From: Blastocatellia bacterium
Lineage (GTDB): Bacteria > Acidobacteriota > Blastocatellia > UBA7656
Reading direction: 5' to 3'
NCBI GenBank assembly: GCA_041497455.1
Contig: JBGQGO010000003.1
Span: 1 to 35,819, forward strand
DNA: 35,819 nt
Under the pieces are notes generated by a model, which ran no database searches, had not been told where the DNA came from, and saw only the letters and a program-made list of their open reading frames with translations. Shown here piece by piece: positions 124 through 34,845 of the stretch; positions within the stretch are counted from its first letter, which is position 1, and each line of letters starts with the position of its first letter. The position numbers and the translations under genes were made by a program.

Positions 124-125
124 TG

Positions 126-869: not shown

Positions 870-913
870 ATGGCGGCGTAGCTCAGGTGGTTAGAGCGTG
901 GGATTCATAACCC
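870..913 (+). repeat. attL: 44-bp direct repeat containing a truncated 5' half of tRNA-Met (872-913)
   Basis: atggcggcgtagctcaggtggttagagcgtgggattcataaccc is identical to 34802-34845. Identity ends 3 nt after the anticodon loop; no T-arm or acceptor 3' strand follows. Confidence 0.93.
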
Positions 914-1029
914 TAGAGAATGCTCGTCCTTCCTTTTCTATCTAAACCCAAAACGCTCTATCGACTGCGATTTTGTGGCCAGCCGGATTGCAGTCAATCT
1001 CGATGAATTACCACCCTTTTCTACGAAGT

Positions 1030-1049
1030 CCTGCCACAAATATGCCACA
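1030..1049 (+). repeat. Putative integrase arm-type sites, left inner end
   Basis: cctgccacaaatatgccaca matches 34718-34737 at 19/20 positions; TGCCACA repeated at an 11-bp period; inverted GCCACAAA at 972-979. Confidence 0.7.
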
Positions 1050-1227
1050 CTACTTTGGAAGTTAAGATGAGCCCAACCCGGTGCTCCTATCTCTACCGTT
1101 GCACTACGTTTCTTCTCACTCTGACTCTGACTCTCTTGAGTCGCGACCTTTGCTGCGCGGCCGACAATGAGCCAGGACTCCAGAAAGAGCGGCTAATCAA
1201 GCCCGCCGGAACAGTCGCCAGGGCAGT

Positions 1228-2805
1228 TCACCTCGGTGCATCTGCACTGCAAGCTCCCACCGCGGGGAACTTGTGGCGCAGATCGATTACACCAGTGATA
1301 GACCCGTTGTCCAGCGTCACGGCCGCCAGTGGCGCGTAATGATGCTCGATCCCGTGTGGAGGTAATGCTTGTAGCTGTTCGATAGATTTACCAGAATCAC
1401 TCGGGTCATCAACGAACTCAGAAGGCCACTCGACGTCACCGGTGGACACCCGCGCCGGAATCAACCAGTAATCGCCGCTACGATATTGCGTCGCGTCCGC
1501 GCCCGCGGCCAGCTCAAACTGAATCATGACTCCGTCTTCCAAGTCGATCCAGACGTTCTCTTCGATTGTTATGGCCCCTTCTCGGAGTAACGTGTCTTCT
1601 GGTTGCTTATGGTCCCAGCGGCGCACTTTCAGATTTCTAACAGGCAGATCGTTGAATTTGGACCGCGGTTCATACACCGTCCCCGATGCGGTGCTGGGAT
1701 CAATCGTCAGAGTTTCGCCTTCGACCCTGGCGAGTCTGACCAAGGTTCCCGGCAAGCCGTTCAATTCAAGCGCGTCGTGGGTGATTTCAACCCAGTTGCC
1801 GGCCGCAAACCACCGTGAGAAGTCGCGCAAACCGCTGACGATCAAATGGTCTCCGTCTTTCCTCTTGAGTGCGGCGATGATCGTTCCGTTGTCGCGCGAC
1901 CATTTGAACGTCGCTGGGTGTTCTCGATTGGATCCCTTGGCATCCAGTGCCGGTCCGGACTGATGAATTTCTACTCTGTAAAGCTGATTCTCCATCCCGC
2001 GATAGCTGGCATCGGGCGAAGTGGTGCAAGCATCAGCTGCATCGGTCGTGGAATCCTCCTTTGCTTTAGCCCGAAGCTTGCCGCGATTCGCAGGTTGAAG
2101 GGCAGCTATCAAATCGGGCCAGGCGCCATCGAACGTCTTGCAGTCGGGAGCTGCCAGACGCACGTTGATGCCTCCCTGGGCTGCCGGAGGAGGAAACCCG
2201 ACTCTGACCTGCCATATCAGCTTCGTACGAGCTGCTGTATCCGCTCCACCCAGCGCCACTTCGCGGATTGACGAATCCTCCAGCGCGGTGATGTGGCGTT
2301 CCCAAACATCCAGGTAAAGAAGGTGGGTGCCATTCGCAAGGTTGCGTATCTGGTCTTCATCCGCACGCCGCAGGTCCGGCTGCTGCGAGTAGCGCCGATA
2401 AGCCTCGTTTTCGCAAAGCAAGCCATCAACGTAGTAATGACCACTGGCGATTCGCAGCGGGATCTGGCTGTTCTTTATCATATCCTCAAGCGTTTTCTTC
2501 TCGCAATCGAGCAGTTCATTTGGAGGGAAAAAGTTAATAGCACCGGACGTCGGCTTATTCGCCGCGATGATCGCAAAGCCGCAGTTTCTCTTAAGCAGTT
2601 CCGTTCTGTTGGCCTGGTCCCTGAATAAGTCATCCGGCCCGCCGTGCTGCCCTATGAGGTCGGCGGCCAGAGCTCGCAGATAATGCAGCAGGATCGCCGT
2701 CTGTTCATTTCCGTCGGCATCCACCTGTACCCGGCCTTGCTGCCAAACGACGCGGGTGAAATGTTTCAAAGGATCAAAAGTGACACGTGAAAGATCGCCG
2801 TTCAT
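1228..2805 (-). CDS. DUF6519-family eCIS protein (fibre-associated), 525 aa, no obvious C-terminal fibre region
   Basis: N-terminus MNGDLSRVTFDP..HF..V..QQGRVQVDADGNEQ; GHYYVDGLLCEN, YLDVWER, ENQLYRVEIH, FKWSRDNG, GDYWLIPAR and HHYAPLA motifs; position after the baseplate genes. Confidence 0.85.
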   Translation of the reverse strand: MNGDLSRVTFDPLKHFTRVVWQQGRVQVDADGNEQTAILLHYLRALAADLIGQHGGPDDLFRDQANRTELLKRNCGFAIIAANKPTSGAINFFPPNELLDCEKKTLEDMIKNSQIPLRIASGHYYVDGLLCENEAYRRYSQQPDLRRADEDQIRNLANGTHLLYLDVWERHITALEDSSIREVALGGADTAARTKLIWQVRVGFPPPAAQGGINVRLAAPDCKTFDGAWPDLIAALQPANRGKLRAKAKEDSTTDAADACTTSPDASYRGMENQLYRVEIHQSGPALDAKGSNREHPATFKWSRDNGTIIAALKRKDGDHLIVSGLRDFSRWFAAGNWVEITHDALELNGLPGTLVRLARVEGETLTIDPSTASGTVYEPRSKFNDLPVRNLKVRRWDHKQPEDTLLREGAITIEENVWIDLEDGVMIQFELAAGADATQYRSGDYWLIPARVSTGDVEWPSEFVDDPSDSGKSIEQLQALPPHGIEHHYAPLAAVTLDNGSITGVIDLRHKFPAVGACSADAPR

Positions 2806-2817
2806 TGTGCATTCCTC

Positions 2818-5424
2818 CTAGCTGCCGAAGATAATTCCCGCCTCTGATCCCGCGGGCATGAATTCGTCCAGCCGGGTGCGCAGATTGGCCGCCCGCTGGG
2901 GTTGAAACAGATCGTGAAAAACGCCCATCTCTGATTCATCACTGGCGCCGCTCGTAGTTTCAGGGGCGCAGGTTGCCGCCAGTTGACAGTAGTCGGGGCG
3001 TCCGTACCGTACGCTGTTGAATTGCGGCCGCACGCGCTGGCGTTCAACGTGCAGGGCCTGGTCTCGCTGATCAGCTTGTTCGGGTTTGTCGAAGGCCAGC
3101 TTGACTGCCGCTTCAACCAGATCGGGCTGGCAGTTGTAGCGGCGAGGCGTGCGCGAGTGGGCCGGCAAGTAACAAAACCGCACACAGCCTATTTGCCGGC
3201 GCGTTACAGTGACCGTCCCCGTGAAGATGCAATCCTCAGCCAGAGCCATGGCATTGGTCTCCACCTGCCCAATAACGGTGCTGCGGACTATGCGCAGCAC
3301 GGCATGAGCGCGCGGCCAATTTGGCGCGCCAAGCGCCTCGCGATCATCATTGGTGGCATCAATCACGCTGTCGCTGACGCTGATCTCGAGCGGTTCGCTG
3401 CGAACCTCGTCCTTGAAGACCTGAATGGAGCCAACAATACTGTGTTCGATGATCACCCGGCAGTCGGTCTTGTATAGCTCCAGACTTGGTTTGGCCGGGC
3501 GCTTGGGGTCGCAAGCGGGACCGATTCCCCACCCGGGCACTAGAGTGCAATGTCGAATTCGCACTTCCTCCACCGCGCCCTCGACCCGCATGCTTCGCCC
3601 GGTTACAAGAATCCCATCGAGAATGAAACAGCCACCGGACTTGCTCTTGACCGAAAGCCATTCTGGACGGTTCTTGTACTGCTCGTGCAGATAGATGATC
3701 GGACGTTTGCGGTCAGCCGCGCGGATTTGAAGGCTTTGACCTCGCTTAAGCTTGATGTCCAGCGGCTCAGAGTAAACACCGTTGTCGGTGATCTCGATTA
3801 TGGCGCTCCGCGGATTGTCCTTGCCCCACCGCTCGATCGCTTTTTCGATGCCCGAGAAAGCAGCGCCTTCGCCTACGCGGTAGAGGCGAATGAATTCGGC
3901 GAGCTCGTTTTTGTACGCCTGCTCGAGCAACAGCCGATTGAGACGGCCCAGTTCTTCGCGCCGTAGTCTTCCTTCAAGCAACCGGGCGACTAGTTGGGTA
4001 ACCTCATGGACGATCTCCGGGTCCAGAGTGATACCGGCAAAGCGTTTTTCATCGTAGAGCTTCTCGTCAAAAAGTTCCCGATTCAGATCTTCAATCAAAG
4101 CCGCAACCAGGGGCTTCCGCAAACTATCCGGCATTGAATCCGAGCCGTCGTAGTCTTTCAACAGTTGCTTCGTCTCGGGAGAGAGCCGTTCGCTAAGATA
4201 GCGATTCAGCGGGCCGACCGCGGCTTTCAACTGCTTTGCCAGGCCGGCTAGGTTCTTGAAATCCAGCTCGGTGAACAGGCCGGTCTGGCCAGGCTGCCGG
4301 AGCTGGCGATGGTATTCGCCGCCGCCAATATCCGCGCTGAAACCGTAGTAGTACGAAGCCCACACTCCGGCAGGCGATTCTTCAGGGTGAAACGCGATGC
4401 GGCCGAGAACCGGATCGACGGCGACGGAGCCTTGCGGCGTTCGGTAACGATTCCAATCGCTCAGGTCGGCTGGGACGATACGATCCAAAGAGATCGGCAT
4501 CGGCGTCTTGCCGCCGTTTTGACTGCCGATCAAGATTTGCATGCTCTTGCCTTCGCCGTAGTAACGACTCGCTTTTTGCTTACGCTCTTGTGCGGACTTG
4601 ATGTCTCGCTCGAAGGCCAGCCGCCGGATCGGCACCGGCAGGTTTGTCTCATCAGCAATGTGCGTCGGATCGGTTTCCGGCTGTGTGCGCGCGAAAAGCG
4701 GAGCGTCATTGCCCAGAAAACTGAAGGTGTAGGCGTGAGGCATCCCGTCTTCTTCAAGGCAAGCGGATTGGCCCACGGTAACCGGATACTCCTTCAGTCT
4801 CCAGACAAACAATCCGACATTTGGCAGATTGTACCGCCCCGTTCTGAAACGCGAGATTACACGACGTACTTCCACGGTGTGCGCCAGCTTGTCGAAGGGG
4901 CCGTCGAGCAAATCGAACGCATTCATTTTCCGCAGATCAACGATCCGGCCGCGCTCGAGGTGCGGGGAGTTGATGGCTTGAGTAAAGCTCAGTAGCCGGA
5001 AAAACTCGACCGCGCGCGACGGCCATGCGGCGGCGTCCAGCGCCACCTCTTCAAGCAGAGCAAGCGTTCCTCTGCGCCGGCGCGATTGAATCGTTCTGGC
5101 GACTTCGCGGCGCGGGATCAGGATTCGGTTGCGCAACAGTCCTTGGGCGCTAGCCGCCTCGCCCGGCTCGCCCGCTTCGTGAACCGGCTGGTAGCCGATA
5201 AGCTCGCTGATGTAGGGAACCACCCAATCCTGACAGGTTTCGATAAACCAGTTTTCATAAAGCTGCCGTATGTCGTCTTCGACCACGTTGACCTGCTCGG
5301 CGATCACGCGTAACAGGTCACGCAGCGGTCCTCCGAGCTCTTCGTCGCGCTGCCGATAAACAACCGGTAGCAACTGATAGAGCCGGTCGAGCGACTGAGG
5401 AGTTTCTTCACCGGTACCGTTCAT
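2818..5424 (-). CDS. eCIS baseplate wedge protein (Afp12/tail protein I-like)
   Basis: LYQLLPVVYRQRD, LYENWFIETCQDWVVPYI, RRRGTL and a C-terminal SEMGVFHDLFQPQR..NL..RLDEF.P.G motif; overlaps the upstream stop. Confidence 0.85.
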   Translation of the reverse strand: MNGTGEETPQSLDRLYQLLPVVYRQRDEELGGPLRDLLRVIAEQVNVVEDDIRQLYENWFIETCQDWVVPYISELIGYQPVHEAGEPGEAASAQGLLRNRILIPRREVARTIQSRRRRGTLALLEEVALDAAAWPSRAVEFFRLLSFTQAINSPHLERGRIVDLRKMNAFDLLDGPFDKLAHTVEVRRVISRFRTGRYNLPNVGLFVWRLKEYPVTVGQSACLEEDGMPHAYTFSFLGNDAPLFARTQPETDPTHIADETNLPVPIRRLAFERDIKSAQERKQKASRYYGEGKSMQILIGSQNGGKTPMPISLDRIVPADLSDWNRYRTPQGSVAVDPVLGRIAFHPEESPAGVWASYYYGFSADIGGGEYHRQLRQPGQTGLFTELDFKNLAGLAKQLKAAVGPLNRYLSERLSPETKQLLKDYDGSDSMPDSLRKPLVAALIEDLNRELFDEKLYDEKRFAGITLDPEIVHEVTQLVARLLEGRLRREELGRLNRLLLEQAYKNELAEFIRLYRVGEGAAFSGIEKAIERWGKDNPRSAIIEITDNGVYSEPLDIKLKRGQSLQIRAADRKRPIIYLHEQYKNRPEWLSVKSKSGGCFILDGILVTGRSMRVEGAVEEVRIRHCTLVPGWGIGPACDPKRPAKPSLELYKTDCRVIIEHSIVGSIQVFKDEVRSEPLEISVSDSVIDATNDDREALGAPNWPRAHAVLRIVRSTVIGQVETNAMALAEDCIFTGTVTVTRRQIGCVRFCYLPAHSRTPRRYNCQPDLVEAAVKLAFDKPEQADQRDQALHVERQRVRPQFNSVRYGRPDYCQLAATCAPETTSGASDESEMGVFHDLFQPQRAANLRTRLDEFMPAGSEAGIIFGS

Positions 5425-8400
5425 GCGACCTCCCCGAGAATCAAGGTGTCGGCTACTGCTGGACTGAGGAAGACCAGTCGAGCAGGCAAAATGTCGTCCT
5501 TCTTGTCGTTCATCCTCGCCAGATCGGCGTTGACTCGCGACTTCAATGTGAGGTTCGCTCCGAAGTTGGGATCTTCGAGCTTCGCTTCGTTCACTGAATC
5601 GAGCAAGTCGAGATCGACGTAATCCACGCCAGGCACTGACTGAATCACGCTCAGCACTTCGCTCTGGGTCACATCCTGACCGAGATCGCGGCTTTCAAAA
5701 CCGAACTTATCAAACAGCACGGCGCGAATCTTGGCATTGACGCTTTCCCACAGGTAATCGGGAAGCAATTTGACCTGGGCGCTGACGACCAGAAGCACCC
5801 GCTCGGACGTCTCTACTTGCAGCGGCTGAAGCGGGTCGCCGAAACGTTTCAGGGCGTCAATCAGGTTGAGATAGAGATCAGAAGTCACATCGATTGGAAT
5901 GTCTCCCACCCCAGAGATCGTTAGATGCACCACTTCACGAGCGCCATCCGAAAGGCGCCGGGCGCTGGCTTTGGCTATGCCGGCGAAGGTCCGCGCAAAG
6001 CAGGCGTAGTCCTGCACCGACACCAACCGATCAAGCGCGAGCACGCCGATTGGCGCATTGCGGCGAGCCTGATCGCGCGTCTCTTTGTCCGCCCCTCCGC
6101 TGGCAGGGAGCGGATTGATGACTCCTTTGACGCCGAGCGGTTTGGTCATCGGCAGCTTGATCTGTTCGGCTTTGACGTTGCCCGCTCTGCCTATGCCTGA
6201 ACGGTAGACCGCTTTGACGTTTTCGACCCCGGTCGGGAGACGGGCTCCCTGTTCGCCGTCGCCGAAGATCACCGTCGTCTTGCCTTCGTCGTCGGTCTTG
6301 GTGATGTACTTGCGATCGAGCCGATCCAGCACGAAGAGATTGTCGGCTTCGCGCCATCGCACGTCGTTGACGCGGACTTCGAGCGTCGTCTCGGCGCCCG
6401 ACGGAGTCGGCGCGGCAAGATATGTAAGCGGCGGCTGGCGCAGCGGGAATGGTTGCAGCGTCTTGCTGCCATCGCCGCTGCCGAGAACTTCGTTGCGCGT
6501 TTCGCCGTGCGTGGCGCGAACCACGTTACCGTAGATCTTCACGGTGCTGCGTCTGTATCGGTAGGCGGGAGGCTGCGCCGGATGGATGAACGTATGCAGC
6601 TTCTCGCCCTTCACCTCTACCGCCTCCTTGTCCACAAGGGTCTTCGCTTCGTGCGCGACCGCGGCCACCATGAAAAGCTCGCTGGCCTGGACACCGGTGT
6701 TGATCGCCTTTTGGGTCCGCGCGTCGAGAACGACGCGCTCACCTGAAATGATGGCCCAGCGGCCGGGTTCGAGGCTTGAATAAAACGCGTCGAGCTCAAT
6801 TACGGGATCGGGATCGTCCTGAGCGAAGCTTATGTCATCGGTGATGTCTGTCTCCGCGAGGGTGAGTTCCTCGCTTTGGGCAAAAACCAGCGTGTTAGTA
6901 ATGAGCGAGTTGGTTTTCAGCGACTGCTCGACCTCGGCTTTGCTCAGCCATTCACTATCCAGAGTCAGTACCGTCGCGACCGACGAGACGCCAAAGAAAC
7001 TAAGAGATGCGTTTCGAATCCCGTTGACCTTGTGAATGGTTCTCGTGAAATCGCCCTGACTGCCTGCAACCGAACCTACAACCGGACGCTCAATAGCAAT
7101 CGTGCCGCCCGCCTTGATTTGATCGTACTGGGCATCGAGCGCGACAAACACCAGCGCTTGCGAAGCAGTTGCCGGAAAGTGGGCATCTGCAAGAGCGGTC
7201 ACGTAGTCCGCGAGGGTCGGCGGTGACATTCTCGTCGAAATTATCGGGCCATCGGGATCGGGTGTTTCTCTAATGATTGTCGGGAGGTTGCGCCCGGCCA
7301 GGCCAGCCTTGATACGCAACGCCTGAAACTTGCTCAAGCCAGCGACCGCAGCGGTCTTCGGCGAGGTCGGCACAACCTGAATCGGGCTTGCGTTGGCCAG
7401 CACCGAATTTACAAACGGCGCCGCCTTTGGTTGAAGCGCGGCGTATGCCTGCGCGACGAACTCGGAGCGCGCCGAATGAATCTGGCCGACTCTACGATCA
7501 AGGTGCGCCTCGTTGCGCGGTTGTTTCGATTGCGGCTCCTTAAACGACTGGAACAGTTGAACGAAGGAGGGCGGTGCCGTATTCGCCGGCGGCGCAGGAA
7601 CGGTCTCGGTGGTCGGCACCGAGTTTATTAATGACTGCGTCTCTTCCAGCTCGTGCTTCATCCCGGACAGCCACGGAGAAATCTTCACGTAGCCGCGAGC
7701 GGAAGCGAAGGCATATTCCCCGGTCAAGTCCGGGATTAGCTCACTCAACTGCGCTGCAAGAGCCTGTCTCTTGCGATCCTCATCTTCGGTAAGCCCGGAC
7801 ACGTCGTTTTTCAGCTTCTCCAGCCGCGTAGTGACTCGCTGGACTATGACAGACTTGTCGGACAGGCCGAACGAGTCGAGTTCCAGATACTTGTTCGCAA
7901 TAGCGGTCAGGGCTTCGACAGCCTGAGCCGACACGGGCTTGACCGCCCCCAACCCGCCGAGGGACGGCGCCTGCCCCTGGAGACTCACTATTACCGTCGT
8001 CCGGTCGAGTTGTGGATCCGCCCTGACTTCCTCCGCGCGATACACGGCAGTCACAGCTTGAACTGTGTTTACCATCTCGAAGTCCAACAGCAGAACGTCA
8101 TTTGCCCGCAGGTTAGTCGCAACCCCCTTCAGAGCCACGGTCGGATTGGTGAGTTGCTCGGCAGTGTGGAAAACCTGCGAATGCGTCAGTCGCGGCTTCA
8201 TCAAATTCAACCCGGAATGGGCGATCAGCCTCTCCGCCGTCTCGAAGACCTGCGGCGTTTCATTGGGGCCGGGCAGGCTCTGCGCTTTGTTGCCGGCTTC
8301 GATAATCGTTGTCTCCTGAGTCGGCTCCAGCGTATAGGCCAGATAGACGCTGGCCGCAAGGCCGGGGCGCAGGCGATACCCCACCAGCCGCGCGAGATCG

Positions 8401-8735
8401 AGAATAGACCGGCGTTCGGTTGCTGTGCGCAGGTAACCTTCGGTGGCTATGCGTTCCTGATAAAACGTCAACACGTCAGCCACAGTCGCCCACGCATCGA
8501 GCAGGGCGATCGATGCGTCGCTGCTCTCACGCGAGGTCAATCCCGCGAGCGTCGGAAATTCGCTGCTCGACAGCCGGGCTTTCATCGTTTCCAGAAAACT
8601 GCCGTGCGTGCCGGCGCGATACGAAATGGCATTCAGCCCCGGGCGATTGAAGATCGCGACCGGAGTCAGAACTTCCACGCCCTTGCAGCAGTCACAGGTT
8701 TCTGGAGTTTGCGCCTTCTGTTTCATTTCTTTCAT
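5421..8735 (-). CDS. eCIS baseplate J-like protein (Afp11/gp6-like), 1104 aa
   Basis: NRPGL.AI.YR.GT, DVLTFYQERIA.EGYLRTATERRS, FGDGEQGARLPTG.ENV.A.YR.G.G and RLVSVQDY motifs. Confidence 0.9.
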   Translation of the reverse strand: MKEMKQKAQTPETCDCCKGVEVLTPVAIFNRPGLNAISYRAGTHGSFLETMKARLSSSEFPTLAGLTSRESSDASIALLDAWATVADVLTFYQERIATEGYLRTATERRSILDLARLVGYRLRPGLAASVYLAYTLEPTQETTIIEAGNKAQSLPGPNETPQVFETAERLIAHSGLNLMKPRLTHSQVFHTAEQLTNPTVALKGVATNLRANDVLLLDFEMVNTVQAVTAVYRAEEVRADPQLDRTTVIVSLQGQAPSLGGLGAVKPVSAQAVEALTAIANKYLELDSFGLSDKSVIVQRVTTRLEKLKNDVSGLTEDEDRKRQALAAQLSELIPDLTGEYAFASARGYVKISPWLSGMKHELEETQSLINSVPTTETVPAPPANTAPPSFVQLFQSFKEPQSKQPRNEAHLDRRVGQIHSARSEFVAQAYAALQPKAAPFVNSVLANASPIQVVPTSPKTAAVAGLSKFQALRIKAGLAGRNLPTIIRETPDPDGPIISTRMSPPTLADYVTALADAHFPATASQALVFVALDAQYDQIKAGGTIAIERPVVGSVAGSQGDFTRTIHKVNGIRNASLSFFGVSSVATVLTLDSEWLSKAEVEQSLKTNSLITNTLVFAQSEELTLAETDITDDISFAQDDPDPVIELDAFYSSLEPGRWAIISGERVVLDARTQKAINTGVQASELFMVAAVAHEAKTLVDKEAVEVKGEKLHTFIHPAQPPAYRYRRSTVKIYGNVVRATHGETRNEVLGSGDGSKTLQPFPLRQPPLTYLAAPTPSGAETTLEVRVNDVRWREADNLFVLDRLDRKYITKTDDEGKTTVIFGDGEQGARLPTGVENVKAVYRSGIGRAGNVKAEQIKLPMTKPLGVKGVINPLPASGGADKETRDQARRNAPIGVLALDRLVSVQDYACFARTFAGIAKASARRLSDGAREVVHLTISGVGDIPIDVTSDLYLNLIDALKRFGDPLQPLQVETSERVLLVVSAQVKLLPDYLWESVNAKIRAVLFDKFGFESRDLGQDVTQSEVLSVIQSVPGVDYVDLDLLDSVNEAKLEDPNFGANLTLKSRVNADLARMNDKKDDILPARLVFLSPAVADTLILGEVA

Positions 8736-11512: not shown

Positions 11513-11530
11513 AACGGGTTCCTTCCGGCG

Positions 11531-12705: not shown

Positions 12706-12721
12706 ATTCCGTTCGCTTCCT

Positions 12722-13846: not shown

Positions 13847-13850
13847 GTCA

Positions 13851-14144: not shown

Positions 14145-14209
14145 CTTTTCACCTCAATGGTCGAACACATCGGAAGCGAGCGCGCCGCCGTGCGGCCCGC
14201 CGCTTCGCG

Positions 14210-24193: not shown

Positions 24194-24443
24194 TTCCCAA
24201 TGCCCCCATAGACCGCGCTCGCGATTTGTTGCCCCAACCTGCTCGGGTTGCTGTTACTCGCCAAATAAATATCCGGAGCATGCGTTGAAGCCATTGCGCC
24301 GCCCGCCATCAAACTGTCTGCCAATCCATCGACCCCGAGTAAGCGACTTAGCTCCGCCTCGACAGCCGCCTTCACCAGCGGACCGTGGTGGTGTTCGATG
24401 GGCAATCCATCCAAAACCAATCGTTCGATTTGAACATTGATCT

Positions 24444-24447
<4 letters not shown>
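24190..24447 (-). CDS. Small eCIS-associated hypothetical protein (85 aa)
   Basis: INVQIERLVLDG..AVEAELSRLL..LGQQIASAVY; overlaps both neighbouring genes. Confidence 0.8.
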
Positions 24448-26641
<2,194 letters not shown>

Positions 26642-26645
<4 letters not shown>

Positions 26646-27961
26646 GAGATTGTCACCTTCGGCCCGATGAATTGATTGAAGGTCGAGCTGGCGTTGTTCA
26701 AATCACGCTCCAGCGGGCTCTCCGCGCCATCCACCTGCGTGCGTACCAGATAATCACCGGCCGGTACGCCTTTGATTTCAAAATCGATCGTAGCTGTGTC
26801 CTGCTGGTTGTTGATGGGGTTACCCTGGTTGTCGACGGGGATGCCGTTATCCCTCGGCGCACTAAGGATGAAACTGCGCGGAGCCCGAGTCGCTGGCGGA
26901 TTGAATTCGTTCAACAACAGCGTCACTCGCTGAGACCTGCCGACTATCGGTTTGAAGTTCACGGAGATTTTCCGGGTCACTTGTTGTGTCACAGGATCAA
27001 CCGGTGTTATGAAACTCGGCAGCGCGGGTTGCGTGATGACCGGAGCGAGCACGAACGCCGCGACGTTCGATTCAAAGCCCCGATGCGGCGCGGGCGGCGT
27101 GCCCATCAAAAACTGCTGCTCGACTTGCAAGCCCTGCACGCCGGCGCGCAAGTCGGCGGGCAGCGTCAGTTTAATTTCAGTGTCGGCCACCGACGCGGGG
27201 ACTACCGGTGGCAGCAAGCTGCCACCGAGGCTGACCTGCGTCACATCGCCGGCCAGCGCCCTGCCGACGATGACGATGTTGCTTCCCGACGTAATCGGCC
27301 CGGCAGTCGGGCTGTCCGGCTTGATCTCCTGAATCACAGGCACGCGGAACGGCACCGTGTAAACATTGCGTTCGAGCACGGGGAACGAAGCGCTTGGAGT
27401 GTCATCTGCTTCGATCAACACGACTGTCCCCTGGTATGTGATCGAGAGGGTGTACTGCGTTTGAAAGAACACGGCCCAGAGTTTTGAAAGCTCTTCGAGC
27501 GAAAGCGAAGTCGGCGTGAACTTAACAAGCTCGAGGTCTTCGGCCAGGTTCGATTGCGCCAGAAAGGTCAGTGTGGGGCTGTTGATCGTCTCCCGAATCT
27601 GCTCTCGCGTCAGCACCGGGTGAGAGTGCAGCGCGCGAACCGTGCTGCCCAACAATCGCTGCGGCTCGAACTGCGCCTCACTGCCGTAAAAGGTCAGCAG
27701 GTAATGCAGGTCAAGCGCCGCTCGCGGTTTCTGAATCAGCCTGCCGTCGTCACTGCGCGTCGGCAGATCGGCGTTGCGCCACGCCGCATTCGGCGTGACC
27801 TGATACAAGTAGATGTTGACCCTGGTGCCGGGGACGGGAGCATTGGCGCCATCGGGACGAGTCGTCGTGACCGTCAAGCCGGACACATCTTGCTGCACGA
27901 CGCTCTGAAGAAATTGCGCGAGCGCGGCAGTCACAGTGGCGATGGCCAGATGGTTGCTCAC
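26642..27961 (-). CDS. DUF4255/Pvc16 (Afp16-like) cap protein with C-terminal Ig-like domains
   Basis: MSNHLAIATVTAAL, NIYLYQVTPNAAWRN, LDLHYLLT and LEELSKLW motifs; beta-rich C-terminal half. Confidence 0.9.
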
Positions 27962-28983
27962 CGGCTGCCCCCACTTCGCTGGCGCAGGTAGTCATCCAGG
28001 TTCATCACCTGCGGCGCATTGCGCTGCCTTTCGGGTCTGGCCGCCTTTGGCGGTGTGGCGCGGACTTCAATGCGGCCAATCGAAACGTTGATGATCGTTT
28101 CCGATGGGGGAACTTCAGCGCCGACTGCGTTGGGCGCGCTCGGCAATAGGTTTGACCGTGCCTTGTGAGTTGGCGGAAGCAAGAGCTCCGCGCCTGGCCG
28201 GGGAATCAAGGTGGTGAGCGGAGCCGGCGTTGACTGATCGTTTTCGATGGTCTCCGTGATTCGCTGAACGACCACTCGCTCTATCGCTGATGACGGCGCC
28301 GGCTGCTCGAGCACCGCCGACGGAGCCCGTTGGAAAGAAGGCGGCGAGCTTTGTCCAGGCGCGGAAAGTTTCTTTCTCGGCGGCGCGACCGCTTGCTGAG
28401 GCGATGAGCTGAGCGGCAACGCTGAGCTGATCTCGGCCGATCTCTTGACCGGCGCCGGCCGAAACTCCGAACGCGTAACGTCCCTGGATGTGGTCGAAGA
28501 AGTTGGCTTCGATGGTTCGAGCGGCTCATCGGCAGATGGTTGCAGCGGTTTGCCAACCAGAGGTCCGGCATTCGAGGTTGGTATTCTCGCCGGTGTAGGC
28601 AAGGCTTCGTCCGATGAATGCGGAATGCGCTGATTGCGGGGCGCAACAGGTTCCACACCGGTCGAGGATTCGACTGAACGGGCCGGCGTTTTGAGGCGTC
28701 GATCGTTCTCAAACAACGCAGCCTCAGACGGCTCTCGATCTCTTATGACGGGCGGTCGAAGTGTTGTGGTCTTCTCTGGCGAAGGATCGCCGAAGGCCGG
28801 AGGCTGTTCCGGCTCTTCGGTGAGTTGCTCACCGGCAACCGTTGCCCGCGCAAAGGGGTCCTCAAATTCCGGGGTCGAAGGCGCGAGAGCATGAGGGACC
28901 TCCGGTGTCGGCGCCAGGAGCGGCTGGACTGGCAGCAGGGGCCTAAAAGTTCGGACCACCAGATTGTCGAAATAGTCACTCAT
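27958..28983 (-). CDS. Pro/Ser-rich, likely disordered eCIS-associated protein (341 aa)
   Basis: Start MSDYFDNL at 28983 (ATGA overlap with the upstream stop); ordered-looking C-terminus INVSIGRIEVRA..LDDYLRQR. Confidence 0.78.
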   Translation of the reverse strand: MSDYFDNLVVRTFRPLLPVQPLLAPTPEVPHALAPSTPEFEDPFARATVAGEQLTEEPEQPPAFGDPSPEKTTTLRPPVIRDREPSEAALFENDRRLKTPARSVESSTGVEPVAPRNQRIPHSSDEALPTPARIPTSNAGPLVGKPLQPSADEPLEPSKPTSSTTSRDVTRSEFRPAPVKRSAEISSALPLSSSPQQAVAPPRKKLSAPGQSSPPSFQRAPSAVLEQPAPSSAIERVVVQRITETIENDQSTPAPLTTLIPRPGAELLLPPTHKARSNLLPSAPNAVGAEVPPSETIINVSIGRIEVRATPPKAARPERQRNAPQVMNLDDYLRQRSGGSR

Positions 28984-29780
28984 CCGACCAGCATCTCCAG
29001 ATAGCATTCCCTGCGCCAGGAACTCATATTGAGAATGTCTGATTCGCGCCATCCATAGGACGAAGCGAGCAAATGGATCTCGCGCAGCAGATGGATCGCC
29101 CGCGCATGCAGTTCGCTCCAGAGGTAAGAAACAATGTCGAAGCCCGCCTGCCATTGGTGCCGGCAACACGGGCATATCAAATCCACTTGCACATCAGCCT
29201 GGGGATCAGCCTGCGCAATTTGCTCGATCGCGGCGTCGATAATCTCCGCGGGCATTCCCGCGGTAAGAGCGGCGGATTCTGTTCGGCCTTGATGTCGAAT
29301 GCTCAGCACACACTGCTCAAATAACCTGCCGCGGATCTCGGCAGGGCTTGCGCACCCAGCCAGCGCGAGCAGATCAAGACTGTTGGGTAGACGAAGCCGC
29401 AGCTCATAACCTGATCGATCAAACGAGAGCATGGGCGCGGGCTCAGCGTTTGACGATGCGCGAATGTCCACCACGCTGAAGCTCATCTCAAGACGCTCGC
29501 CGCACACCGGACAGTCGGCCAAGCTAGTCAACTGCTCGCCAAATAGCCTCTCCCGCAACGCAATGAGACACGCATCGCGCTGACCTATGCTAAGCGCGGC
29601 CAGCGTTTCACGCGAAGCACCCGGGCAGGCTGCAGCCAACATCGTCAACGCCCTCTCCACGGGCGCTTGATGCTGTCCACGTTCCCACACGTCCAGCAAT
29701 TCCGCCGGAGACAACGACTCCACGGACCCAATCGCCCCGCGAGCGAGCGAAGATGAACTGGAAAAGCTGACCTCGTTCAT
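28980..29780 (-). CDS. eCIS-associated baseplate/chaperone-like protein with two CxxC motifs
   Basis: LLDVWERG, IGQRDA.L..LRE.LFG, CPVC, DPQAD, CPCC, EIHLLASSYGW.E.DIL.MS..RR..YL; follows the tube gene. Confidence 0.8.
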   Translation of the reverse strand: MNEVSFSSSSSLARGAIGSVESLSPAELLDVWERGQHQAPVERALTMLAAACPGASRETLAALSIGQRDACLIALRERLFGEQLTSLADCPVCGERLEMSFSVVDIRASSNAEPAPMLSFDRSGYELRLRLPNSLDLLALAGCASPAEIRGRLFEQCVLSIRHQGRTESAALTAGMPAEIIDAAIEQIAQADPQADVQVDLICPCCRHQWQAGFDIVSYLWSELHARAIHLLREIHLLASSYGWRESDILNMSSWRRECYLEMLVG

Positions 29781-29822
29781 CGTTCAATCTTCGATCATCA
29801 CTCGAATCTCTGAGCGCTCAGG

Positions 29823-30344
29823 CTAGGTCAAAGTCGGCTCAGAAGGTTCGACAACCTCTGTGTCGCGCTCCCAACCTTCGTTTTCCAGTTTGATAGTTTG
29901 GATCAGAACAGCATTGGCGTTGGCATCCAGATCGGCCTGAGCCTGATATTCGGACACCCAGCAGCGAAAGACCTTGTAGGCGATCACCTTTTGACCGGAT
30001 TCGTTGTACAGCTCGATGATGATGTCCTTGCGAAAATCCTTAAGGGACACCTCCTTGCCGAGACCGGAACTGAAGTCCCAGACCTTGCCCGCCCACTTCT
30101 CGAATTCCGGATCGTGAGTCACCCCGCGCTCGAGCGTGATGGCTTCATACTCGGAGCGGCCCGGCGACTTGCGGGTGCTGCTCGGATCGCCGCCCTCCCG
30201 GTGTTTTACGACTTCAGTAGTGCGCTTGAGCGCGCCGATCTTACTGACCCCCGCCACGAAACGTCCATCCCATTTGATCCTGAACTTGAAGTTCTTGTAT
30301 GGATCGAACCGTTGCGGCTGAATGTTGACGCTGAACTGTGCCAT
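29823..30344 (-). CDS. Tail tube protein (gp19/Afp1-like)
   Basis: RFDPYKNFKFRIKWDG, HREGGDPS..KSPGR, ITLERGVTHD.EFE.W and FRKDIIIE motifs. Confidence 0.96.
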   Translation of the reverse strand: MAQFSVNIQPQRFDPYKNFKFRIKWDGRFVAGVSKIGALKRTTEVVKHREGGDPSSTRKSPGRSEYEAITLERGVTHDPEFEKWAGKVWDFSSGLGKEVSLKDFRKDIIIELYNESGQKVIAYKVFRCWVSEYQAQADLDANANAVLIQTIKLENEGWERDTEVVEPSEPTLT

Positions 30345-30447
30345 AGCTGCTCCTCCGAACGCTTATTCGAATGATTGGCCTCTTCAGCCATGCCGAACCG
30401 GCGAGAGCTGAAGCCGATTAACCTGCCGTCCGCCTTTGTCTGAAACC

Positions 30448-32355
30448 TTACGTTTGAAGCTGTCCGGCGATCTGCTGGAGCTTGATGACCACAAACTCCG
30501 CGGGCTTGAGCGGCGCGAAGCCCACCAGAATATTCACGATGCCGCGATCGATGTCGTTCTGGGTGGTGGTCTCCTTGTCGCATTTGACGAAGTAAGCCTC
30601 GCGCGGTGTCGAGCCCTGAAACGCGCCCTGGCGGAAGAGCGAGTTCATGAACGCGCCGACGTTGAGCCTGATCTGCGCCCAGAGCGGTTCATCGTTCGGC
30701 TCGAAAACTACCCATTGAAGCGCGCGATATAGGCTTTCTTCGAGGAACAATGCGGTGCGCCGAACCGGAACATATTTCCATTCCGAAGCTAGTCGGTCAT
30801 CACCCACGCGCGTTCGCGCGCCCCAAAGCACGTGACCAGCGGCGGGCATGGTTCTCAGGCAGTTGATGCCCAGCGGATTAAGTTCTCCATTCTCCGCGTT
30901 CGTTAGAGGGACAACCAACCCGGCGATTCCGGCCAGCGTGGTATCCAGGCCTGCGGGCGCTTTCCAGACTCCGCGGGTCGCGTCCGTGCGCGAGAACATG
31001 CCGGCGACGATCCCGCAAGGGACGAATTCCTCGAGCTGATTCCCGTGCAGCGGATTCGCTTGCTTGACCCGCGGGAAGTATATCGCCGCGTTCTTGCTTG
31101 CCTTACCGGCGCCGGTTAGGATCCCGGTCTTAGCGGTCTCCTTTGTCCGCCACCCATCCGGCGGATCGACGATCATCATCGCGCGACGTTGCTCGCAGTA
31201 ATCAATCGCGTCATCAATCAGCCCCGTTTCGATCGAGCTCTCAGGCACGTGCGGTGGGATGCATAGCAGGTTGAACAGGTCGGCGTTATCAAGCGCGAAG
31301 AGCCCTTTCTTTGCGGCAGCCTTTCCTGAACCGGTGAAGGCTGTTCTGTCTAGCGTTTGTCCGTTCGAGGCCAGCTTATCGACCCCGGACGAGTGGGTGT
31401 CATCTCCGTCTTCAAAACCGTCAGTACCGGGAGCCAGGTTCGGGTGCGCGGTCGGGCGGGTAAAGGGAGCGGTTCCGGACGCGCGAATCAACAGAGATTC
31501 GTTCTTCAAGACCTTGTCGACGATGCGCGCGCTGTTCCTTGCCGTGAGATTGCGGAACGTTTCGGTTACACCGGTCTTGGTGTCGCGGACAGTGAGATTG
31601 AAAAGATCGGCCTTGGCGAACCCCGGCCCGAAGACCAGTGCGATGGTGGCGTCGTCCATAACGTCATCGTCAATACGTACGCGAAGGCTATTTCCCCATG
31701 TACCTTCGGCGGCTGCCTCCAGATTCAGCCCGTTTACCGACAGGCCGGCCTTTGTTATCGGAGCCGCGTTGTTGGCGGCTGCGGTTACCGCTCCAGCAAC
31801 CGCGCCCGCCACTGCAGCCTGCACACTCGCTGGAGTTGGCGCCGGAGTTGTCACTGCCGCCGCATCAGTGGCAGCTTTCGCCACGGCCGTCGCGGCTTGC
31901 AACGCTGCTGCGCTCGTGCCCCCTGCCGCCGCCACGGCCGCCGTCGCCGCCAGAGCGACCGTTGCCGCTGTCGCGCCGGCGGCTCCAGCCGCCGTATCAA
32001 CTGCCGACTTCACCGCTGTTGCCGCCGTCTGCGCTTGACCGGTTGCAGTAGTCAATTCCGTTTGGCGCTCCGCTTCGGTGGCGAACGTAGGGGTGAAGAG
32101 CCTCACGATGATCGCCTGGCTCCCGCCATTCCGATAGAAATCGCGCACTGCATAGCTCATAGTGCCCGGCACCCACAGCCCACCGAAGATGCGCTCAAAA
32201 TCACCATAGTTGTTAATCACCACCGGCTCATCGACCGGCCCGCGCAGAGCTCGACCGATGAAGGCCGTAATTGAAGTGGCAACTCCGGTGATGGTCCGCA
32301 CTCCACTGGGTATCTCCTCGATGTACACTCCTGGAAAGGTCAGCGCACTTGGCAT
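30448..32355 (-). CDS. Contractile tail sheath protein (Afp2/3/4-like) with an Ala-rich insertion
   Basis: PGVYIEE, RGVWKAPAG, LNPLGINCLR, WGART, WKYVPVRR, WVVFEPNDEPLW and APLKPAEFVVI motifs. Confidence 0.97.
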   Translation of the reverse strand: MPSALTFPGVYIEEIPSGVRTITGVATSITAFIGRALRGPVDEPVVINNYGDFERIFGGLWVPGTMSYAVRDFYRNGGSQAIIVRLFTPTFATEAERQTELTTATGQAQTAATAVKSAVDTAAGAAGATAATVALAATAAVAAAGGTSAAALQAATAVAKAATDAAAVTTPAPTPASVQAAVAGAVAGAVTAAANNAAPITKAGLSVNGLNLEAAAEGTWGNSLRVRIDDDVMDDATIALVFGPGFAKADLFNLTVRDTKTGVTETFRNLTARNSARIVDKVLKNESLLIRASGTAPFTRPTAHPNLAPGTDGFEDGDDTHSSGVDKLASNGQTLDRTAFTGSGKAAAKKGLFALDNADLFNLLCIPPHVPESSIETGLIDDAIDYCEQRRAMMIVDPPDGWRTKETAKTGILTGAGKASKNAAIYFPRVKQANPLHGNQLEEFVPCGIVAGMFSRTDATRGVWKAPAGLDTTLAGIAGLVVPLTNAENGELNPLGINCLRTMPAAGHVLWGARTRVGDDRLASEWKYVPVRRTALFLEESLYRALQWVVFEPNDEPLWAQIRLNVGAFMNSLFRQGAFQGSTPREAYFVKCDKETTTQNDIDRGIVNILVGFAPLKPAEFVVIKLQQIAGQLQT

Positions 32356-32456
32356 GATTTGTTTGCCTCCTATACGTTTGTCCGATCAGCGCTCAACTTC
32401 ACCGCGATGAGCAAGCGCGATCAACGACGAATGCGAATCGAACGATTTCTGACGAA

Positions 32457-32735
32457 TTACTTAGCGCCCTGCTCGAGCAGCGCGCGGATTTCCTCTTGTC
32501 TTTGACTATTGATCAGGTAGCGGACGCGGGAGTCAGGACCCTTGCGCTCGAGGATCAACCCCCTGGTCGCTAGCTCCGCAAGCGCCTCCCTGACTTTTGA
32601 AGTCCGGCTCTCAATCTTTCTCTCAAGCAGCCACCACTCGACGATCCCTTCCAGTGTGTCTTGCGCTTCGGGGTTGTCGATCAGGTAGCCCAAAACGTCC
32701 CGAGCGATCTCTGACTTTTCCGTTGTGCAAGCCAC
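32457..32735 (-). CDS. Small winged-helix-like hypothetical protein, first gene of the eCIS operon
   Basis: YLIDNPEAQDTLEGIVEWWLL..VREALAEL..RGLI..YLIN; helix-helix-wing pattern is inferred. Confidence 0.75.
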   Translation of the reverse strand: MACTTEKSEIARDVLGYLIDNPEAQDTLEGIVEWWLLERKIESRTSKVREALAELATRGLILERKGPDSRVRYLINSQRQEEIRALLEQGAK

Positions 32736-32768
32736 ACACTCACCCTCTTGTCGTAGCGCGCAATCAGC

Positions 32769-32784
32769 AGCAATCGGTGCGCCG
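32769..32784 (-). promoter_or_regulatory. Putative sigma54 (-24/-12) promoter of the eCIS operon
   Basis: Minus strand reads CGGCGCACCGATTGCT: GG-N10-GC with TTGCT, ~35 bp upstream of the first gene and next to a sigma54 activator gene. Confidence 0.72.
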
Positions 32785-32933
32785 CGGCTTAAGTGTTTTG
32801 TATGTCGTGTTGCGATGATGCGAGGTGGGTTCTTTTTGTCCGGGTAGTTTTGATTTGGAGGAGCGTCGGGGCCGATTGCCGCTCAAAATCTCGGTGGGAC
32901 AAAAATATCCGCGTCCCGCCGACAGTTGTCCGG

Positions 32934-34346
32934 CTACTGGGCCCCGGACCTAAAGCTTCGCCCATCGATACTGTGCTTGCGCATCAGTTGACGAAGAGCG
33001 CGCGGGTCCTTCTGCGCCGCCCGCGCGGCCTTGCTGATGTTTCCATCATGGGCGCGCAACAGGCTGTTGATGTAGGACCGCTCGAACTGCGCGATCATTC
33101 CGGCTTTCATCTCACGAAACGACGACGCCGCCGCGCGCGTTTGCGCTCGCGGCAGATAGATGTCTTTGGTGCCAATCACGCCTTGCTCGCACATCACGAC
33201 AGCTCGTTGGATCACGTGCTCGAGCTCGCGAATGTTTCCAGGCCATTCGTAAACCAGCAGCATCTGCATCACCTCTTCCGACAAGTCGGCAATTTGCTTG
33301 TCGAACTCTTCTGAGTATTTGGCGAGAAAGTGACGGGCGAGAAGCGGGATATCTTCGCGCCTCTCTCGTAGCGGGGGAAGCACCAGAGGAATCACGTTCA
33401 GGCGATAGTAAAGGTCTTGCCGCAGCCTGCCCATTATTACCGCCTCCTCCAGATCGACATTGGTTGCCGCCATGACTCGCACGTCAGCCTGGCGCATCTT
33501 CATTGAGCCCAGCGGCCGGTATTCCTTCTCTTGAAGGAAGCGCAGGAGCTTTACCTGCGCCAGCAGGGGAAGGCAATCAATTTCATCCATGAAAAGCGTG
33601 CCGCCGCCGGCTTCGTGAATCAAACCCAGCCGCGACGTGGCGGCGCCTGTGAACGCTTCGCGCTCGTGGCCGAACAATTCGTTCTCCACGAGGTCAAGGG
33701 GTATTGCCCCGCAGTTGACCGGCACGAATGGTTTGCTCGCGCGCGGACTCAGGTAGTGAATGGCCCTGGCGCAAAGTTCTTTTCCCGTACCAGTCTCGCC
33801 AAGGATCAAGATGCTCGCGTCGCTTCTGGCAACCGCGGGAAACTTGTTGACTTCGTAGAGGAACGCCGGGCTTTCGCCAACCAAACGCCTAAGCCCGAGT
33901 TTCTCCTTCAACGCGCGCACCGGCGAGGCTGCTCGCTGTGATTGCTCTAACAATCTCCACACGCGCGGAACTATATCGATGGCTTTGAATGGGCAAGTGA
34001 TGAAATCAGACGCTCCCTCTCGGAGCAGTTCCAGCATCACATCAGGCTCGCACGCATCGACCACGACGATTACCGGCACGTCTGAGGATTCCGCCCGTAT
34101 CGAGCGGAGCGTGCTGACGGTTTCGCCCAGCCGGCTGGACTGCAGAGTGAGGAATAGAAGTGATGGGTTCAACCGCGAGACGATTTTGAAGCGATCGTCC
34201 AGCTCTGCGCCGGCTTCCGCTGTGGCCACGGATTTGTGTTCAATCTTTACGGTCGAGCGCAATGTTGTCTCGAGGAGCTCGCGCACGGCATCAGACATGC
34301 CGTCTGCGGGGGAAAGGTCGAGCAATAGAATTGTAGCTGGCTTCAT
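32934..34346 (-). CDS. Sigma54-dependent enhancer-binding protein (NtrC/Fis family), ~470 aa, with an atypical receiver domain
   Basis: GETGTGKE, EAFTGA, LFMDEI, RQDLYYRL, WPGNIRELE and a C-terminal HTH. ATG at 34346 has an AGGAG Shine-Dalgarno; the track start at 34481 is probably too long. Confidence 0.93.
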   Translation of the reverse strand: MKPATILLLDLSPADGMSDAVRELLETTLRSTVKIEHKSVATAEAGAELDDRFKIVSRLNPSLLFLTLQSSRLGETVSTLRSIRAESSDVPVIVVVDACEPDVMLELLREGASDFITCPFKAIDIVPRVWRLLEQSQRAASPVRALKEKLGLRRLVGESPAFLYEVNKFPAVARSDASILILGETGTGKELCARAIHYLSPRASKPFVPVNCGAIPLDLVENELFGHEREAFTGAATSRLGLIHEAGGGTLFMDEIDCLPLLAQVKLLRFLQEKEYRPLGSMKMRQADVRVMAATNVDLEEAVIMGRLRQDLYYRLNVIPLVLPPLRERREDIPLLARHFLAKYSEEFDKQIADLSEEVMQMLLVYEWPGNIRELEHVIQRAVVMCEQGVIGTKDIYLPRAQTRAAASSFREMKAGMIAQFERSYINSLLRAHDGNISKAARAAQKDPRALRQLMRKHSIDGRSFRSGAQ

Positions 34347-34509
34347 ATCCTGCTCCTTCTGTAAGGCCGTTATCCAAAGTCGCTGCGGAACCTCATCTGA
34401 GGTCACCTTAGATGATACTTCCCATTCTCTATGACGCGAATTGCGTCCCGGATAATCCAAATAGAGTTGTAAGGAATTCAATTAAAACGACCGAAGAGCC
34501 GGTGAGGCC

Positions 34510-34700
34510 TGCCCTACAAGATGCCAAAGCACTTTGCGGATGCTGCAAGACCTCCGACCCGCCGGGCTCTCGATGAAGGCATCCCGGCTGAGGTCCCGGT
34601 TAGCGCGGTCAAAGAGGTGATCGGTCAAGGTGGACAGACCCACAACCATGCGTTATGTTTATGCGACGGATGAGGGCAAGCCTCGAGTGGAAGCGGCGTG
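34510..34700 (+). pseudogene. Degenerate tyrosine integrase C-terminal remnant
   Basis: Across two frameshifts: QDLRP (34546-34560; cf. HDLRH), RALDEGIP..VSAVKEVIGQ (34563-34628; cf. VKE.LGH), TTMRYVYATDEGKPRVEA (from 34642; cf. TTMRY.H, catalytic Tyr). Confidence 0.75.
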
Positions 34701-34717
34701 GCGTGGCAAAGAAAAAA

Positions 34718-34787
34718 CCTGCCACAAATCTGCCACAAACGCTCGAAAAGACAGCGTGAGGCGAGCCCACAAGTAGCACCACAAGTA
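34718..34787 (+). repeat. Putative integrase arm-type and accessory-factor sites, right inner end
   Basis: TGCCACAAA twice (34720, 34731) and CCACAAGTA twice (34767, 34779), just inside attR. Confidence 0.7.
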
Positions 34788-34801
34788 ACAGATGATAAAG
34801 G

Positions 34802-34845
34802 ATGGCGGCGTAGCTCAGGTGGTTAGAGCGTGGGATTCATAACCC
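34802..34845 (+). repeat. attR: 44-bp direct repeat overlapping the 5' half of the intact tRNA
   Basis: Identical to 870-913. Confidence 0.93.

Follow-up and report, generated by a model that had tools for sequence, protein, structure and literature searches.

How a complete extracellular contractile injection system (eCIS) came to be bracketed by two identical copies of part of a tRNA gene, and whether those copies mark a unit that still moves, are the questions raised by a 35,819-nucleotide stretch of a Blastocatellia bacterium genome (assembly GCA_041497455.1, contig JBGQGO010000003.1; here the window, which is the entire contig, C3). The interval 870-34845 is very probably a fossil integrative island at an elongator-type tRNA-Met gene, of the class that leaves a 5' fragment of the tRNA gene (tDNA) at its far end. 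Its integrase survives as a stub, and the eCIS that it carries appears to have been exchanged between lineages since the integrase was lost. The window was compared with the rest of its source (G000), a 94%-complete metagenome-assembled genome (MAG), and with 61 relatives and 53 family genomes; all the genomes compared are MAGs.

The two 44-bp copies are 100% identical and start 33,932 bp apart, and no further copy at three or fewer mismatches is present in the G000 assembly (6.14 Mb, 919 contigs). Each consists of 2 nt of upstream sequence followed by nt 1-42 of the tRNA-Met gene, and extends through the anticodon loop TTCATAA plus CCC. The intact gene, one of four CAT-anticodon tRNAs in G000, lies at the right, with the orphan fragment at the left. 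The parts of the presumed recombination site are as follows.

870-913, plus strand: orphan tRNA-Met 5' fragment and attL core (tRNA part 872-913), from the repeat and tRNA comparison
914-1049, plus strand: P' arm, the conserved left island end, from an alignment of nine loci in seven genomes, with the terminal TGCCACAAATATGCCACA at 1032-1049
34563-34753, plus strand: frameshifted tyrosine integrase remnant, by tblastn in three frames, covering about residues 305-365 of a 366-aa homologue in G006
34623-34801, plus strand: P arm, the conserved right island end, from an alignment of 15 loci, holding TGCCACAAATCTGCCACA at 34720-34737
34802-34845, plus strand: second repeat copy, attR core, the island-supplied 5' part of the working tRNA gene
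34804-34880, plus strand: intact, elongator-like tRNA-Met(CAT), by ARAGORN and Rfam

The initial annotation had described the repeats and their spacing, tRNA identity running from the 5' end to just past the loop, and an interval holding a regulator, the eCIS, its cargo array and almost nothing else. All of this is borne out (29 open reading frames, ORFs, were scanned), and its suggestion of a less common, reversed island with crossover in the anticodon loop is supported by the limits of the orphan fragments, by the conserved arms and by the seven of 14 related integrases that lie upstream of their tRNA.

The sequence just ahead of the intact tRNA identifies the integrase. The G006 protein, used as a tblastn query, matches the window over residues 305-321, 323-353 and 329-365, each in a different frame, so that the remnant is the last ~60 codons of a tyrosine integrase; it retains the TTMRYV(Y/H)A motif. 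The homologue itself (G006, contig C114) is a 366-codon frame with a Phage_integrase domain; it shares the strand of its tRNA and stops ~37 bp upstream of it. Intact integrases overlap the P arm with their 3' ends where they read towards tRNA-Met (this gene and one in G016) or tRNA-Thr (G029 and G020), and a related integrase gene overlaps P on contig C5 of G015.

Both arms behave as single conserved units. In profile searches with nhmmer, P' gave E = 5.5e-36, with one strong copy in G000 plus a weak match on contig C8 (E = 0.003), and P gave E = 1e-36, with a single copy. Each arm carries TGCCACA-N4-TGCCACA, and the window holds these two matches and none more (4 of 100 shuffles reach two). 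Similarity among the nine aligned P' copies ends exactly after this motif, with divergence beyond it, and in P the same motif is part of the coding sequence for the integrase C-terminal tail. A 20-mer that had been read as a minus-strand sigma54 promoter was ruled out as such, being integrase C-terminal coding tail and arm motif.

Elsewhere, P' follows an orphan tRNA-Met 5' fragment (h5) in G006, G009, G015 and G029, and in G027 and G017 it follows a fragment that, read from its anticodon loop, is the 5' half of a tRNA-Thr(CGT). The full layout of flank, h5, P', cargo, P and tRNA is found on a single contig in G010 (19.8 kb) and in G015 (contig C13, 7.5 kb). The G010 copy matches window 15-1049 at 82%, through the flank gene, the spacer, the orphan fragment and the 136 bp of P'; its intact tRNA-Met lies 19.8 kb rightward, with a homologue of window 34630-34801 (P) just ahead. 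In another family, G043 (contig C41, 38139-74553) has an orphan h5 lying 36 kb upstream of an integrase pseudogene and tRNA-Met, and this 36-kb 5'-type island encodes a TrwC relaxase, a TrwB coupling protein, an ORC/CDC6-like protein and an AAA_21/AbiEii-like ATPase.

The repeat might instead be an assembly artefact, or a stretch of tRNA gene copied by chance or in a segmental duplication, with no recombination footprint; either is highly improbable. It could be suspected because the window is a whole MAG contig, ending 870 and 940 bp outside the repeats, and because public contigs break at the repeat. However, the left junction (flank-h5-P') recurs in the separate assembly of G010 at 82-90% identity, the right junction is found in many genomes and the linkage of eCIS, P and h5 in G006; the arms and the integrase stub flank the repeat, which runs from tRNA nt 1 to 3 nt past the loop, as it does in five other genomes. 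Logan contigs from four runs were compared with window 1-3000. One of 1,441 nt, from run X1 (possibly the source sample), spans 884-2324, and the independent run X3 gives cover at 582-898 and 1075-3000 and contains the P|h5 junction as a loose end. Run X2 has zero cover at 1001-1200, a gap that is given no weight. The link 1050-1118 is backed solely by the window's own assembly and X1. Since the junctions are reproduced in G010, in G006 and by contigs of X1 and X3, misassembly of the repeat-bounded interval is unlikely.

The limits of the orphan fragments locate the crossover. Six orphans of the 5' type stop 3-6 nt beyond the anticodon loop, and two of the 3' type at this tRNA (G013, G023) start 3 nt ahead of it. 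The exchange is thereby confined to GGA-TTCATAA-CCC, an anticodon-centred site. A sublocation preference within tRNA genes was reportedly described by Williams in 2002. The favoured scheme is one in which the attP site, built as P - tRNA nt 1-42 - P', was joined to the tRNA gene of the chromosome by a tyrosine integrase that crossed over within the 7-nt anticodon loop. The chromosomal 5' half, together with its old promoter, would have been displaced far to the left, to 870-913, leaving a working gene made of an island-supplied 5' half and a chromosomal 3' half. The integrase gene, at the right island end and reading towards the tRNA, would later have been deleted to the present frameshifted stub, and the island would now be unable to move by itself.

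The polarity of this arrangement is not peculiar to the window. Fourteen loci at least 54% identical to the G006 integrase were found in a survey confined to the 61 relatives (a broader contig search gave three loci, the query included). Seven lie upstream of the tRNA on its strand: at tRNA-Met in G006, G009, G016, G027 and G029 (a partial copy), and at tRNA-Thr(CGT) in G029 and G020. Five have the canonical polarity: they are convergent with tRNA-Met in G042, G023 and G029 and with tRNA-Lys in G017, and the fifth is a junction on contig C5 of G015. The other two, on G015:C5 (at a contig end) and G025:C352, could not be placed. Judged by these arrangements, integrases of this clade act in either polarity and at no fewer than three kinds of tRNA gene (Met, Thr and Lys). 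The two polarities meet in G015. There the first mismatch of the 5'-type orphan to the tRNA is the base directly after the loop; that base and the sequence following it match the element side of the canonical junction in the same genome, which reads P - reverse-complemented 3' half - P'. This match suggests that the arms hold one orientation while the tRNA-derived core flips.

Contig C2 of G029 (5587365-5647922) has an orphan h5-P' and a P-tRNA pair 60 kb apart in inverted relative orientation. This tRNA has an integrase remnant upstream and an intact, convergent integrase of the family downstream, a pairing that points to islands on both sides of one tRNA. In G010, likewise, the tRNA is closely followed by a weak remnant of P in inverted orientation, which suggests a second, canonical-side fossil island.

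An element inserted in the reversed polarity must, in this scheme, supply the promoter of the tRNA gene. A promoter scan of the two upstream regions gave one candidate for each.

787-816, plus strand: sigma70-like site TTGCGA-N18-TAGAAT with TG, 54 bp upstream of the orphan fragment
34631-34659, plus strand: TGGACA-N17-TATGTT, by promoter scan, the sole sigma70-like site upstream of the intact tRNA

The first may have been the original promoter of the tRNA gene: its two hexamers do not differ between G000 and G010, and the spacer does. The second coincides with codons V-D-(I/R) and R-Y-V of the integrase catalytic-tyrosine motif, and these codons appear to act as the tRNA promoter now. The block is kept in 15 of the 15 aligned P regions, and four independently truncated remnants (G001, G002, G012, G014) start no more than ~10 bp from its first hexamer. 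In G013 and G018 P is undetectable by profile search, yet TGGACA-N18-TATGTT and TGGACA-N18-TATTTT, respectively, stand upstream of the tRNA. A probable reason why the stub has been kept is thus that its catalytic-motif codons serve the tRNA. More tentatively, these features may form a single strategy, in which the clade works in both polarities by a flip of the core (tRNA 5' half versus reverse-complemented 3' half), stub codons become the replacement promoter, tRNA-Met expression becomes dependent on the stub, and the site is left as a permanent, reusable slot. If true, this would explain why trimming of the remnants stops just short of the -35-like hexamer, and why the 5' side of the tRNA can be reused, for the eCIS of G000 and for the Tc toxin of G010.

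The cargo between the arms is an eCIS that would be sigma54-regulated, with a variable array of eCIS_core toxins. All the large ORFs between the repeats are on the minus strand, and Pfam recognised nothing in the scanned ORFs there beyond the genes of the eCIS, four cargo proteins with eCIS_core and one sigma54 activator. The families below are those of Pfam and NCBIfam.

1228-14866, minus strand: baseplate and spike half of the eCIS as a whole
1228-2805, minus strand: DUF6519 protein
2818-5424, minus strand: 868-aa ORF, family-less
5421-8735, minus strand: TIGR02243 baseplate assembly protein
8732-11512, minus strand: Baseplate_J protein
11531-12211, minus strand: gp25 protein
12208-12705, minus strand: Phage_base_V spike
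12722-13846, minus strand: ORF
13851-14144, minus strand: ORF, family-less
14210-14866, minus strand: CIS_tube protein
15101-24193, minus strand: cargo array, four eCIS_core (DUF4157) proteins and one ORF
15101-18082, minus strand: eCIS_core cargo
18124-18960, minus strand: family-less ORF in the cargo array
18960-19889, minus strand: eCIS_core cargo
19913-21757, minus strand: eCIS_core cargo with annexin repeats
22418-24193, minus strand: eCIS_core cargo with PG_binding_1 (peptidoglycan-binding)
24444-32355, minus strand: sheath and tube half of the eCIS as a whole
24444-26645, minus strand: AAA+ ATPase
26642-27961, minus strand: Pvc16_N cap
27958-29175, minus strand: ORF, family-less
28980-29780, minus strand: T4_baseplate-like ORF
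29823-30344, minus strand: gp19-type tube
30448-32355, minus strand: sheath
32934-34481, minus strand: sigma54-dependent activator (receiver, AAA+, HTH_8)

The core set of sheath, tube, gp25, Baseplate_J, spike, AAA+ ATPase and Pvc16-type cap is thus all present in a single cluster. The four eCIS_core matches have E-values of 7e-32 to 2e-33, and repeat families D1-D4 mark the N-terminal domains common to the cargo proteins. Capsid, terminase and type VI secretion membrane-complex families gave no matches among the ORFs scanned, which is an absence of hits only. The true start of the activator is probably the ATG near 34346, behind AAGGAG. Despite this sigma54-type activator beside the eCIS, the whole window holds no TGGCAC-N5-TTGCW site at up to one mismatch.

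The history of the eCIS seems to differ from that of the site that it occupies. Among the 61 relatives and 53 family genomes a close eCIS lineage occurs in just two others, G006 and G018, and what is common to these can be outlined as one feature.

~1119/1130 to ~34360/34408, minus strand: eCIS module common to G006 and G018, by DNA alignment, with the central ~15.1-23.9 kb variable

G006 belongs to the same genus, and window 1119-14866 and 23901-34408 are collinear with it at 91.5-94.3%, against a syntenic baseline of 78-85% with one 734-bp block at 91%. G018 belongs to another genus and matches window 1130-14867 and 24407-34359 at 86-88%, against a baseline of 66-81%. In the nearest relative, G010 (baseline 88-93%), there is only a 34%-identical sheath, elsewhere in the genome. 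Identity of the eCIS above the baseline points to recent horizontal exchange, for which homologous recombination, or a ride on other integrase-bearing islands at the same tRNA, is the most likely route. The cargo array is the sole part of the eCIS that is not collinear among G000, G006 and G018; alignment there is limited to the N-terminal eCIS_core domains, so that the toxin domains appear to have been swapped between lineages.

The exchange would postdate the loss of the integrase. The truncation is common to all three eCIS copies: the stub starts at residue ~305-312 in G000, G006 and G018, and at ~274-282 in G010. This common start suggests that the eCIS was already joined to the truncated integrase before it reached the three lineages. 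The common limits of the block fall inside the att-bounded interval and are marked by no direct or inverted terminal repeat of 9 nt or more. We conclude that the att sites are likely to record the entry of an ancestral element into the tRNA gene, not the latest route by which the eCIS travelled. Two expectations of the initial annotation fail here. The interval was to be a concrete vehicle for eCIS transfer, and its integrase is a remnant, with no cognate integrase in the assembly; the repeats were to give exact transfer boundaries, and the block common to G006 and G018 does not run from 914 to 34801.

The same data bear on whether the eCIS arrived with this integrase at all. It may instead have entered a pre-existing fossil island by cargo replacement, through tandem integration and deletion between arms or through homologous or illegitimate recombination, a history that we regard as possible but would not favour. 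It would fit the contrast between the left junctions of G000 and G010, 82-90% identical, and their P arms, only ~71% identical; the different starts of their integrase remnants (~305 and ~274-282); their wholly different cargo (eCIS and TcA/TcB-like genes); the sharp identity break at ~34407 relative to G006, whose left junction is a truncated fragment of an unrelated gene; and the lack of terminal repeats on the eCIS block. However, the junction between the activator's upstream region and the stub (at ~305-312) is common to G000, G006 and G018, so that the eCIS and the integrase gene are likely to have been neighbours before the block spread, as expected of cargo beside its own integrase.

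Other arrangements of the slot show how it has been reused. The island of G010 (contig C5, 122865-142786), in the same flank-h5-P' ... P-tRNA slot, encodes a TcA-like protein (3,461 aa) and a TcB-like ORF with SpvB and TcdB middle domains, and nothing eCIS-like. In G018 the order is tRNA-Met, a convergent intact integrase (385 aa, 47% identical to that of G006), a LytS/LytTR pair and the eCIS, followed by the first ~17 stub codons, an 18-bp inverted copy of the tRNA 5' end and housekeeping-type genes. The inverted copy, AT plus tRNA nt 1-16, lies directly after the stub's first ~17 codons (contig C65, local 46621-46638). A single inversion was considered as the origin of this scar and rejected, as the arrangement could not be derived from one; a far-end 3' tRNA fragment was not found in the G018 genome.

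A further alternative has the same origin and differs on present activity: the island may still be mobile as a non-autonomous element of the kind called cis-mobilisable (CIME), moved by an integrase supplied in trans or by a tandem element. This is unlikely, although the ends look well kept. Both 44-bp cores are perfect and both arms have the TGCCACA-N4-TGCCACA motif; the spread of the eCIS postdates the integrase truncation; in G006 the eCIS is followed at once by P-h5-P', the junction that a tandem would predict, and another contig has an intact integrase beside the tRNA. The orphan fragment is also 100% identical to the intact tRNA gene in G000, G010 and G006, in a left flank (869 bp) whose identity between G000 and G010 is only 80%; this full conservation might come from gene conversion, from a role as an att site or from expression of the tRNA half as a transcript. 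However, no clade integrase was found in G000, the common eCIS limits differ from the att sites, G006 is without the left att site, the right end of G018 is rearranged, and no circle or empty-site junction was seen, though k=31 unitigs cannot resolve a 44-bp repeat.

A number of observations weigh against the favoured reading of 870-34845 as a fossil island. An intact integrase is absent from the island itself, and in the rest of the 94%-complete assembly no integrase of the clade was found, the best matches being 22-37% identical over partial lengths. The gene order in G006 is flank gene, 480 bp of a truncated unrelated gene, eCIS, P stub, h5, P' and other cargo; the same eCIS thus stands beside the same flank gene without h5-P' on the left, and may have come by another route than inside these att sites. 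Identity to G006 is 97% over 33902-34408 and drops to 74% at ~34407, which suggests different histories for the eCIS and the P arm. Left-flank, right-flank and activator-to-stub queries against the 61 relatives and the 53 family genomes did not turn up the empty site that the initial annotation proposed, in which tRNA-Met would lie directly between the gene at 126-734 and the hydrogenase. In none of these genomes does the flank gene adjoin the tRNA, the order in G013 being flank-PhoD-tRNA, and the hydrogenase flank matches G002, G052 and G044 only, with tRNA-Met adjoining in none. Neither an excision or circle (attP) junction nor an empty-site (attB) junction was seen in Logan contigs, which all break at the 44-bp repeat, unresolvable with k=31 unitigs, and so are silent on excision and on occupied or empty alleles. 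The GC content of the island, 59.5%, is within ~1.2 standard deviations of the genome's 5-kb windows; base composition is uninformative on foreign origin, either way. As for the promoter, its role is supported by consensus scans and conservation; exact matches to the pattern in 61 genomes all lie upstream of a tRNA on its strand (11 of 11), a specificity that is partly circular, the pattern having been derived from 5'-type loci, and so supportive rather than independent.

Outside the island, the window holds three further features.

14-116, no strand assigned: ~100-bp palindromic multi-copy repeat, by DNA matches on both strands
126-734, plus strand: left-flank chromosomal gene, family-less, with zero Pfam or NCBIfam matches
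35307-35819, plus strand: right flank, 5' part of a hydrogenase/NADH-oxidoreductase small-subunit gene (Oxidored_q6)

The repeat has copies on at least eight other G000 contigs (94-97% on one strand) and many in G001, G010, G012, G003, G007 and G046. It looks like a miniature inverted-repeat transposable element (MITE) or a repetitive extragenic palindromic (REP)-type element, and probably caused the contig break at the left end. DNA homologues of the left-flank gene are found at 80% identity in G010, 74% in G013 and 66% in G006, each on a contig with tRNA-Met or an eCIS. At the right end, window 35679-35819 (141 bp) is identical to the end of contig C204 of G000 in reverse orientation, an assembler k-mer overlap, so that the hydrogenase flank continues on C204. 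Elsewhere in G000 (contig C280, 3322-4071), an initiator-like tRNA (CAT) is convergent with a tyrosine recombinase gene (424-aa frame), in what looks like the start of a canonical island.

Among known systems, the closest are the 5' tDNA fragment islands of the Islander database. In its Table 1, 159 of the 3,919 islands carry a 5' fragment and the other 3,760 a 3' fragment; a 5' fragment is expected by its filters to lie upstream of the tRNA gene, and one of its site classes is centred on the anticodon (Hudson, Lau and Williams 2015, PMC4383910). The reversed arrangement is thus an already documented minority class, and the 5'-type layout, seen in 4% of Islander entries, is that of seven of the 14 loci of the present clade. 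The window island resembles these islands in having an intact tDNA and a displaced cognate fragment on one replicon in the same orientation, the end fragment being of the 5' type and 33.9 kb upstream of the tDNA. It is also alike in length (33,932 bp, within the 2-200 kb allowed), in a crossover at a known sublocation centred on the anticodon loop (site A), and in a tyrosine-integrase lineage. It differs in failing the integrase filter, since PF00589 is absent from the 29 scanned ORFs and the ~60-codon frameshifted stub alone is present, and in its eCIS cargo and a clade with both polarities and Met, Thr and Lys targets.

CIMEs are known from the ICESt1/ICESt3 family of Streptococcus thermophilus. 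The window island shares with them att sites at both ends and the absence of recombination and transfer genes, here among the ORFs scanned, and the P-h5-P' junction of G006 suggests that such an island can stand in tandem with an element that has an integrase. It differs from CIMEs in host phylum, integrase clade and target. The data call for caution: att repeats need not mark the present unit of transfer, the integrase here having probably died before the eCIS block spread, within limits that lie inside the repeats.

With the Afp/PVC-type eCIS the window shares the sheath, two tube proteins, gp25, Baseplate_J, the spike, the AAA+ ATPase, the Pvc16 cap and eCIS_core (DUF4157) cargo (review PMC10598620). 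The window eCIS differs in being linked to a sigma54 activator, in its Acidobacteriota MAG host and in its place between mapped att sites, and is known from its genes. In the available text of that 2023 review the words 'integrase', 'genomic island' and 'tRNA' are absent, and the example of mobility is the plasmid-borne Afp. A literature search joining extracellular contractile injection, genomic island, integrase and tRNA returned no eCIS-island paper among the results listed. Horizontal spread of eCIS is widely assumed and seldom tied to a mapped integration site; here an att core, arms and an integrase lineage can be named. Tc (ABC) toxin loci enter the comparison through the sister island of G010, not the window. 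With an eCIS in G000 and a Tc toxin in the same slot of its nearest relative, the 5' side of tRNA-Met would be a place where soil and sediment Acidobacteriota exchange entire toxin-delivery systems. What is new here is the integrase remnant, the conserved arms, the different cargo in the same slot and the spread of the eCIS after integrase loss, and a dual-polarity clade whose integrase codons may serve as a tRNA promoter bears on how integrase targets evolve and on why island fossils persist.

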